A stretch of 64,000 nucleotides of DNA, taken from assembly GCA_965223545.1 (NCBI GenBank), contig OZ245006.1, positions 4,320,001 to 4,384,000 on the forward strand, in the 5' to 3' direction. The notes beneath the pieces are model-generated. The model was given only the letters and a program-made list of their open reading frames with translations. It was not told the origin of the DNA and searched no databases. The translations under genes were made by a program, and so were the position numbers. Shown in pieces: positions 10,700 to 12,406 of the stretch. Source of the DNA: Planctomycetota bacterium. GTDB lineage: Bacteria > Planctomycetota > UBA1135 > UBA2386. Every line of letters begins with the position of its first letter. Position 1 is the stretch's first letter.

Positions 10700-10731
10700 T
10701 GAAGGTACGGAGCCTGAAGGTACGGAGCCAG
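10700..10731. repeat. Left half of a REP-like palindrome: tandem TGAAGGTACGGAGCC x2, ending in the CAG core
   Basis: Identical 15-mers at 10700-10714 and 10715-10729; inverted relative to 12376-12406 with one mismatch per unit. Confidence 0.9.
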
Positions 10732-10975
10732 TCCTGCCCCGGCAGATTTGTCGGCCCTTCAGGGCAGGAAACTAGCCGCTGAGGAAGGGGGAGGGGAACG
10801 TGTGAGGGGCCCGGCAGCTACGCCCCCAATAGCCACTGGAGCACGTTTGCCCCAGAGCCAGTCTGGGTCCGAGTTGGCCATCCTTCACTGGTGAGGGGCA
10901 CGTCGCCGTGCCCACTCCCGCAGGTCAGATTCGTTTGATCGCCGCCTCGGGCCGGGCCCACCACAACAATGAGGA
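10732..10975 (+). ncRNA. Putative IS110 bridge RNA region (ends unknown)
   Basis: ~250 nt non-coding end containing GAGCCAG (10855-10861, equal to target left flank plus core) and CAGGTCAG (10921-10928, equal to IS right end plus core); hairpin arms TCCTGCCC/GGGCAGGA at the 5' end. Confidence 0.7.
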
Positions 10976-10981
10976 TGAAGT

Positions 10982-12364
10982 ATGGCTGGGAAGAGCAGAA
11001 CGAGGAAGGGCAAGAAGCCCGCAGCGGAAGTATTGCCAGTCGTGAAGCCCAACGCCGCCGGAATCGACATCGGCAGCCGCGAGCACTGGGTGTGCGCAGC
11101 AGCACCCGACGGCAGTCGTCCGATCAAGCGATTCGGAACGACGACGCCCCAGCTAGAGGCGCTCGCGGACTGGCTGGAGGAGCTCGGAGTGCGATCCGTC
11201 GCGATGGAGAGCACCTATGTCTACTGGATTCCCGTCTACGAGCTACTCGAGTCGAGAGGCTTCGAGGTCATCCTCGCGAATGCCCGCGAGGTGAAGAACG
11301 TGCCGGGCCGCTCCAAGTCCGATGCCAGCGATTGCAGTTGGCTGCAGAAGCTACACACCTATGGCCTCATTCGCGCTTCGTTCCGGCCTCCGAAGGACAT
11401 CTGTGCGTTGCGGACCCTGCAACGCCATGCCGCGTCTTTGATCGCGCAGCGCACGCGCCACACGCAGTTGATGCAGCGGTCACTGGATCAGATGAACGTG
11501 GCGATCCATCGCGCGGTAACGGACATCACCGGCAAGACCGGCCTCGCGATCATCCGCGCGATTCTCGCTGGTGAACGCGACCCTCGAGCGCTCGCCAGAC
11601 TGCGTGATCCGCGCTGCAAGATCTCCGAGAAGGAGCTCGCGGATCACTTGCAAGGGACCTGGATCGAGGAGCACATCTTCACTCTCGCTTCGGGCTTGCG
11701 GATGCTCGAGCACACCGACCACGAGATCGAGTCGGTCGAGAAGCGATTGATGGCGATGATCGAGGACCTGCAACCGGAGGAAGCCAAGACGGCCGACGTC
11801 CCCGAGCATCCAGACCCCCGCAAGGAGAGGAGCATCCGAACGAAGGGCGGCCGGGAGCTTCGCGATGCCCTCTGCCGGCTCGTCGGGTGTGATCTCACGC
11901 GAATCGACGGTATCAGCCCGAGCACGGCCATGATCGTGCTCACCGAGGTCGGCTACGACCTCGATGCTTTCCCGACCGAGAAGCACTTCGTCTCCTGGCT
12001 ACGCCTGTGCCCACGTCAAGCCGTCTCGGGTGGAAAGCGCATCAAGAAGCACCGCAACAACATCGCGGTCAGCAGGATCGCCACGGTCCTCCGGATGGCC
12101 GCCCTGTCCCTCCAACGTACTCAGACAGCTCTCGGCGCACACTTCCGCAAGATCGCCCGCGCGAAGGACGGCAACGTCGCCATCTTTGCCATCGCCCGCA
12201 AACTGGCCCTGCTCATCTACCGCATGCTGAAGTTCGGCCAGGACTACGTAGACGAAGGCGCCAAGGCCTACGAGGAGCGCTTCACCCAGCGACGCATCGT
12301 CGGACTCCGACAGAACGCTAAATCCCTCGGGTACAAGCTCGTACCGATCGCCGAGGCTGGGTGA
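10982..12364 (+). CDS. IS110-family transposase/recombinase (DEDD RuvC-like + C-terminal Tnp domain)
   Basis: AAGIDIG, VAMESTYVYW, KSDASD (DEDD); IDGISPSTA...FPTEKHFVSWLRLCP..VSGGK (conserved Ser); AIARKLA. Confidence 0.95.
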   Translation: MAGKSRTRKGKKPAAEVLPVVKPNAAGIDIGSREHWVCAAAPDGSRPIKRFGTTTPQLEALADWLEELGVRSVAMESTYVYWIPVYELLESRGFEVILANAREVKNVPGRSKSDASDCSWLQKLHTYGLIRASFRPPKDICALRTLQRHAASLIAQRTRHTQLMQRSLDQMNVAIHRAVTDITGKTGLAIIRAILAGERDPRALARLRDPRCKISEKELADHLQGTWIEEHIFTLASGLRMLEHTDHEIESVEKRLMAMIEDLQPEEAKTADVPEHPDPRKERSIRTKGGRELRDALCRLVGCDLTRIDGISPSTAMIVLTEVGYDLDAFPTEKHFVSWLRLCPRQAVSGGKRIKKHRNNIAVSRIATVLRMAALSLQRTQTALGAHFRKIARAKDGNVAIFAIARKLALLIYRMLKFGQDYVDEGAKAYEERFTQRRIVGLRQNAKSLGYKLVPIAEAG

Positions 12365-12373
12365 GTTTCAGGT

Positions 12374-12406
12374 CAGGCTCCGTACCGTCAAGGCTCCGTA
12401 CCGTCA
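12374..12406. repeat. Right half of the REP-like palindrome: tandem AGGCTCCGTACCGTCA x2
   Basis: Identical 16-mers at 12375-12390 and 12391-12406; the last TCA is the stop codon of the convergent gene. Confidence 0.9.

Follow-up and report, generated by a model that had tools for sequence, protein, structure and literature searches.

A bridge RNA in an IS110-family element whose second donor strand matches a displaced, inverted site, and a possible folded donor

Introduction

Does the noncoding left end of an IS110-family element in a planctomycete genome encode a bridge RNA and, if so, how would such an RNA recognize the two DNAs that are to be joined? The question is raised by a locus within the 64,000-nt stretch of DNA analyzed here (the window), in which an initial annotation saw an IS110-family bridge RNA with a target loop followed by a donor loop, on account of one match to the flanking target and another to the right end of the element. 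Both matches are exact: positions 10855-10861 repeat 10725-10731, positions 10921-10928 repeat 12369-12376, and the two segments start 66 nt apart. Among 20,000 dinucleotide shuffles of 10750-10981, the 7-mer match arises in 1,409 and the 8-mer match in 342 (7% and 1.7%), both arise in 21, and both in the right order in 10. Either match alone is unremarkable; the pair is not.

The element and its target

Comparison of the 23 near-identical copies in the genome, which are 1,642-1,643 bp long, delimits the element to 10732..12376 of the plus strand, comprising the left end, the transposase gene, the right end, and one copy of an AG core, with 250 nt of noncoding DNA upstream of the transposase and 12 nt downstream of it. 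The insertion point is the center of a REP-like palindrome, of which 85 empty copies are present in the genome; copy comparison places its left half at 10700..10731 and its right half at 12377..12406, both on the plus strand. The same 7-nt left half-site (positions -7..-1) precedes all 23 copies, insertion is in one orientation, and positions +1..+4 to the right of the insertion are conserved in 22 of the 23. The element thus displays the IS110 trait of site-specific insertion about a short core, without terminal inverted repeats. This core had been taken as 3 nt in the initial annotation; since the preceding base differs between left and right junctions, both in homologues and at an off-target joint in this genome, it is 2 nt, AG (CT on the other strand), found at 10730-10731 on the left and at 12375-12376 in the right end. 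The right end as a whole (12364..12376, plus strand) further contains one copy of a sub-terminal inverted repeat (12364-12369) and a donor arm (12370-12374). The 7-mer target by itself occurs 1,959 times in the genome, so a 7-nt target guide cannot act alone; the 10-mer composed of the 7-nt site and 3 further nt occurs 104 times, 85 of them inside the repeat.

Several copies of the repeat and the element are individually distinctive. At three positions of the contig C1 (6469830, 6715175, and 7558360), the last 5 bp of the element are left between the two target halves in the repeat, and these remnants look like scars of imprecise excision between the left core and an inner AG of the right end; two other repeat copies show a single C-to-T change beside the core. 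At C1:4826231-4829690, two tandem copies have a duplicated 176-bp left flank in common, and the right end of the first is joined to an off-target site with partial likeness to the target, resembling a half-match event. In the window, both palindrome arms are tandemly doubled (15-nt and 16-nt repeats at 10700-10729 and 12375-12406), unlike in most other copies. Close relatives are scarce, being found in 2/61 and 4/401 genomes, own genome included, and at 2 viral loci, and the plasmid annotations contain no ISfinder-type name for the subfamily. No joint of two element ends was found in the contigs of four sequencing runs, a kind of assembly from which rare forms are dropped.

The recombinase and its homologues

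The gene at 10982..12364 (plus strand) codes for a 460-aa DEDD recombinase with the DEDD_Tnp_IS110 and Transposase_20 domains (PF01548 and PF02371), in which domain search, alignment, and a predicted model point to D29, E76, D114, D117, and S349 as the DEDD residues and catalytic serine. Across 36 aligned homologues, E76, D114, D117, and S349 are invariant and D29 is nearly so, and S349 aligns to the catalytic serine of IS621. The profile NF033542, which denotes the broad IS110 family, is matched with 248 bits (cutoff 140), and the predicted structure (mean pLDDT 86.6) finds its best matches in IS621 and ISCro4 (Foldseek E 9e-14).

Homologues were gathered from 71 genome loci and 80 metagenome loci, yielding 94 loci at at least 50% identity, window included, of which 87 were parsed and 81 had enough of the left end. 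These 81 were reduced to 41 representatives, no two of them 90% or more alike, and in two cases a sister copy whose left junction is intact took the place of the representative; four loci lacking a left end were added for the right-end tests only. The pattern used to set right ends did not depend on the RNA, and left ends were set according to spacing. Eight of 37 homologues lie directly behind the right end of a related element and in 6 of 36 a left end follows directly; some target guides are programmed for the ends of related elements, and matches number 46 in one genome, where many form tandem arrays. Five homologues have as their left flank a nearly perfect 14-nt palindrome whose last bases are the guide match.

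A bridge RNA with reversed wiring

The left end almost certainly encodes a bridge RNA of about 150-165 nt, which, to judge by comparison of these sequences, would bind the recombinase and steer insertion into the center of the host palindrome. On this point the protein domains, the consensus fold, and the covariation of the guides agree with the initial annotation, as does the order of a target loop and then a donor loop. The predicted core fold occupies 10808..10958 (plus strand), where the outer stem P1 (10808-10815 with 10951-10958) closes the junction of the target and donor domains; in the consensus, a long outer stem closes two similar domains, in each of which a stem and a 5' strand precede a hairpin and finally the 7-nt guide. 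Two-sided changes are seen in 21 of 34 consensus pairs, a level reached in 0 of 500 shuffles and above all slid controls, and the fold is upheld by 41 distinct sequences that were not used in training, in an alignment that was itself fitted to the model. A search with the consensus model gives 43 matches among 72 additional loci and a single one in the window, at 10792-10971. The overlap of the target guide with a CCCAGA/TCTGGG stem, which had been a caveat of the initial annotation, is a feature of the single-sequence fold only; in the consensus of the 41 homologues these bases pair elsewhere and the target guide is unpaired. The region has no Rfam family match (one chance-level match falls outside it), and a scan of the region in its unjoined form found no consensus promoter or terminator; a -10-like motif is present in 11 of 41 homologues versus 9.6 expected. 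A CT preceding the closing stem was considered as a core guide and ruled out, as it pairs within the RNA with compensatory changes.

The target guide is the 7-nt segment at 10855..10861 (plus strand), on the 3' side of the target loop. Over the homologues it agrees with the left flank at 178/195 bases versus 69.9 in permutations, which here and below ignore kinship, and it is perfect in 28/39, with one of the misses being a wrong boundary call. The base that follows it (10862) is handshake-like, in that it equals the first base of the left end (+1, 10732) in 32/39 homologues versus 18.9, with 6 of the 7 misses being U.G-compatible. The 5' strand of the same loop (10830..10835, plus strand) can form four contiguous pairs with the core G and right-flank positions +1..+3. 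Its complementarity to the right flank over three positions is 45/129 versus 30.0, matched in 18 of 20,000 permutations for what was one of five registers tried, suggesting a short, weakly programmed guide; in one multi-copy homologue, eight right flanks vary and do not fit this strand. In another homologue, 7 nt of the right flank are complementary to the strand, one base out of the usual register. The target would be specified chiefly by the 7-nt guide, together with about 3 nt contributed by the other strand.

The donor guide (10922..10928, plus strand), on the 3' side of the donor loop, reads the right end through the core. It agrees with the right end at 219/220 noncore bases versus 157.6 permuted and is perfect in 43/44 homologues. 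It is 7 nt long, not the 8 nt of the originally noted match, for the eighth base agrees in only 23/44. The base after it is nearly always A and equals the right-flank +1 in 8/43; no handshake is apparent in the donor loop, so the symmetry of the two loops is incomplete. Both segments thus covary with the target and donor of each element, the behavior by which the initial annotation had proposed to recognize guides, and they are far from invariant, with 30 distinct target guides and 14 distinct donor guides among the 41 representatives. The wiring is another matter: that of IS621 had been assumed, but both segments lie on the 3' sides of their loops, in reversed order. The right guides could not be placed at that time because nothing 3' of either segment complements the right target or right donor (128 vs. 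130.3 expected and 117 vs. 118.9 expected, respectively). The guide does match the target repeat, but the novelty of the specificity does not amount to much: thousands of bridge RNAs have been predicted (in the published texts of PMC11208160; 10.64898/2026.10.21.760802), so a new target specificity alone is unremarkable, and this one, at 7 nt with about 3 more, is short and has no particular value.

A second donor strand matched to an internal site

What is unusual, and was missed by the initial annotation, is a probable second donor guide, S2 (10880..10887, plus strand), formed by the 5' strand of the donor loop. S2 does not read the junction, its complementarity to the canonical right donor being 67 versus 71.3 expected. 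Rather, it has the same sequence as an internal site of the left end, S1 (10754..10761), so that it could pair with the minus strand there. Over the homologues S2 and S1 agree at 266/287 bases versus 208.0 permuted (maximum 228), the best of three offsets being taken in both the observed and the null comparison. When nearest neighbors on the transposase tree are compared in 20 disjoint pairs, the cognate S1/S2 combination is better in 9, worse in 0, and tied in 11, and 10 of 21 S1 differences are mirrored exactly in S2 versus 0.8 expected; per-position tests on independent pairs, of which there are too few, give no significance among the positions listed. Out-of-sample scoring, which used S1/S2 and left out the donor-guide column, covered 36 of the 43 model matches (3 without the repeat motif and 4 duplicate or too short being set aside) and gave 87/96 versus 73.4 in 12 close elements and 125/192 versus 91.2 in 24 distant ones of roughly 42-47% identity. 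S2 has 16 variants among the 41 representatives, and S1/S2 mismatches show no bias toward wobble-tolerated types (6 vs. 6 among 21). In the window copy the two segments agree at 6/8 over the above coordinates, and the S1/S2 identity is only 5/7.

A common RNA partner of S1 and S2, suggested by pairings in a few members, proved not to be general, and no partner common to both is found on the plus strand of the noncoding region (233 vs. 233.8; 239 vs. 237.9). Since no such plus-strand partner exists there, the partner of S2 is most simply the minus strand at S1, and on the strength of the covariation we regard it as very likely that S2 reads the minus strand of this internal site, 22-30 nt into the left end. 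Covariation searches confined to a donor window could miss S2 because its partner lies that far away and on the other strand. Inversion products between the right end and S1 were also sought; a single pattern match was found in 212 loci, and not at an element end.

A sister subgroup of 43-46% identity differs in its RNA and in having a shorter left end; its insertions fall within other transposase genes, at an A-rich run that we take to resemble an IS3 frameshift site. The consensus model has no matches in this subgroup, and S1/S2 agreement is 38/72 versus 33.8 in the 9 of 73 distant loci that could be parsed, which is no clear match.

A possible folded donor

S1 sits in a structured context. 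The first 8 nt of the left end (10732..10739, plus strand), of a length conserved in the homologues, lead from the core to a DNA hairpin (10740..10753), which we propose to be the U-turn of a fold-back; S1 follows, and then the left copy of the sub-terminal inverted repeat (10768..10773, plus strand), 36 nt inside the left end. Exactly 8 nt separate the DNA stem from the core in 34/40 homologues; the stem abuts S1 in 38/40, and its arms covary (202 vs. 148.9), with hairpin energies modestly below those of shuffles (median z -0.9). The inverted repeat, of about 7-8 bp, covaries in its outer positions with the right-end copy (38/39 vs. 20.0 and 28/39 vs. 10.4), the repeats are scored as paired in the predicted minus-strand fold in 32/39, and the spacing sets 5 nt opposite the 5-nt donor arm in 31/41. 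The window copy is among the weakest examples of the proposed fold-back: its stem, with one G.T, has two Watson-Crick pairs, its spacer exceeds the usual length by 1 nt, and in its predicted fold a competing 8-bp stem of 10732-10739 with 10762-10769 is preferred. One change found in six type-B copies brings the stem to four Watson-Crick pairs.

Were a single loop to pair twice with one strand, in the usual antiparallel fashion, the strand would have to turn back; and since S1 abuts a conserved DNA hairpin within covarying inverted repeats, one donor strand can present both guide partners. From these covariations and spacings we infer a scheme of pairing, folding, strand order, and single-strand exchange, in which the minus strand of the end-to-end junction would fold on itself, either as a single-stranded circle or as a cruciform arm. 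The inverted repeats would close one side and the left-end hairpin the other, leaving a bubble between them that would show both partners of the donor guides in register, one per side. The minus strand would be exchanged first, and would be the only strand exchanged, with replication then fixing the product. Weighing against the scheme are the weakness of the window copy, the lack of a wobble bias among S1/S2 mismatches, the per-position tests, the modest hairpin energies, the incomplete symmetry of the two loops, the multi-copy homologue with varied right flanks, and the sister subgroup. A donor of this kind, a folded minus strand used in single-strand exchange much as is the attC site of integrons, has in our estimate a slightly better than even chance of being correct.

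Alternative explanations

One alternative, that the matches are chance or DNA-level repeats and that no guide RNA exists, could draw on the frequency of either match alone in shuffles and on the lack of an Rfam family match or a consensus promoter in the region, but it is very improbable given that the guides covary with flanks and ends and that the stems show compensatory changes. More serious is a one-armed bridge RNA in which only the two 7-nt guides pair, and S1 and S2 are a protein-binding motif, with one copy acting as DNA and the other as RNA, that changes together with the recombinase or by local copying of sequence. The absence of a wobble bias among S1/S2 mismatches and the conservation of S2 in many members suit such a motif, as does a protein about 130 aa longer than that of IS621, which could read extra motifs; moreover, half-match recombination, as described in the text of 10.64898/2026.08.31.748434, indicates that one guide can suffice. 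Yet S1 and S2 change in step even where the transposases are almost the same (branch lengths 0.05-0.15), distant members have unrelated sequences at both, and S2 occupies the position that in the target loop is held by the second guide, which complements the right flank. We therefore consider this reading decidedly unlikely.

It is also conceivable, if fairly unlikely, that the pairing of S2 with the minus strand at S1 is real but takes place at the integrated left junction, either during excision or in a complex held there to regulate transcription. All of the S1/S2 covariation fits this equally; the order of the target guide, the handshake base, and S2 is collinear with that of the left junction; and excision complexes, according to the text of PMC13626964, bind each junction across both loops. 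By itself, however, pairing at the integrated junction leaves unexplained the fixed 8-nt offset, the stem abutting S1, and the register of the inverted repeat with the donor arm, and the repeats meet only after the ends are joined; nor is there a promoter signal at or after S1. The whole explanation that we prefer, namely, a bridge RNA whose S2 reads S1 in a folded donor, we hold to be somewhat on the probable side. In its broadest form it would describe a widespread IS110 subfamily in which half of the donor site has moved inward and become inverted, the donor loop recognizes a fold-back of one strand, and the recombinase is dedicated to single-strand, attC-like insertion from a pre-opened donor; the chances of this broad form we put at about even. 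The family provides a sequence-level argument, naming the exact bases, that some IS110 elements evolved a donor that makes sense only if one strand folds, and, if true, a recombinase accepting hairpin or single-stranded donors would be a different engineering tool.

Relationship to known systems

The comparisons that follow are with the texts of the published papers; the same RNA fold may be present in Extended Data Fig. 10c of PMC11208160, in Fig. S12 of the language-model preprint, or in subscription papers. Within the literature searched in this way, including PMC13604230 and 10.64898/2026.08.14.744561, neither a folded donor nor a donor guide directed at an internal inverted site is described, and the covariation that points to a displaced, inverted second donor site is, relative to these papers, new and well supported.

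As in IS621 and ISCro4/IS622 as their texts describe them (PMC11208160; PMC11208158; 10.1101/2025.05.14.653916), a recombinase with the DEDD and serine fold is preceded by the RNA upstream of its gene, the target loop comes before the donor loop, the core is 2 nt long (here CT when the minus strand is read), the target is REP-like, and a 7-nt guide runs through the core and is followed, here in the target loop, by a handshake-like base. In particular, IS621 has a CT core and a 3'-side donor guide that covers seven positions through it, the next base pairing with the other DNA after exchange (text of PMC11208158). Against this, the protein is only about 20% identical to that of IS621 and has 460 aa rather than 326 aa; the loops here are multi-branched and place a hairpin before each guide, unlike in the accounts of IS621 and ISCro4; and relative to the account of IS621, target and donor are read opposite to the gene orientation, fitting it only when read on the minus strand. 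The second target guide is also shorter than that described for IS621, at about 3-4 nt, and the second donor guide would read an internal inverted site rather than a contiguous junction. The family also suggests that the reversed guide order is partly a matter of strand orientation, the handshake falling on the minus strand.

This reversed wiring has precedent in the order reported for IS1111 elements (text of PMC11187229). As described there for the IS1111-type ISEc11, ISKpn4, and ISPa11, a top-strand match or complement lies 5' of a bottom-strand match, and covarying sub-terminal inverted repeats lie with 7 nt outside them at one end; donor guides in a multi-loop are likewise mentioned for IS1111-type elements in the text of PMC11208160. 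The comparison covers ends, repeats, and RNA wiring; sub-terminal repeats of the IS1111 group span 7-17 bp and lie near both ends, and the covarying repeat here is within that range in length. Differences from the IS1111-type account of PMC11187229 are that the noncoding region is upstream rather than downstream, the repeat is about 7-8 bp rather than 11-13, and the other end has 36 nt outside the repeat rather than 3.

A DNA stem-loop that adds to RNA-DNA pairing in an IS110 system is reported, as far as the text goes, for ISPpu10 (10.64898/2026.03.19.712850); there it belongs to the target, whereas here it lies in the element's own end and would reposition a guide partner. The question of single-stranded versus double-stranded IS110 circles is disputed in texts of 2025-2026 (10.1101/2025.10.25.684509; 10.64898/2026.08.31.748434; PMC13626964). 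IS621 and CazIS110-1 are described as excising one strand, and a single-stranded donor can integrate (texts of 10.1101/2025.10.25.684509; 10.64898/2026.08.31.748434); the preference of CazIS110-1 for a double-stranded donor at one junction (10.1101/2025.10.25.684509, as given in its text) counts against the single-strand reading. The IS621 complexes described in the text of PMC11208158 needed an engineered 6-nt mismatch bubble at positions 2-7, the same positions as those of the bubble proposed here.

The element would thus join bridge-RNA guidance to a donor that opens by folding. For this last feature the closest parallel is offered by the integrons, as an analogy only. There, a folded single strand of attC is the recombination partner and one strand is exchanged, by the tyrosine recombinase IntI and with no guide RNA.
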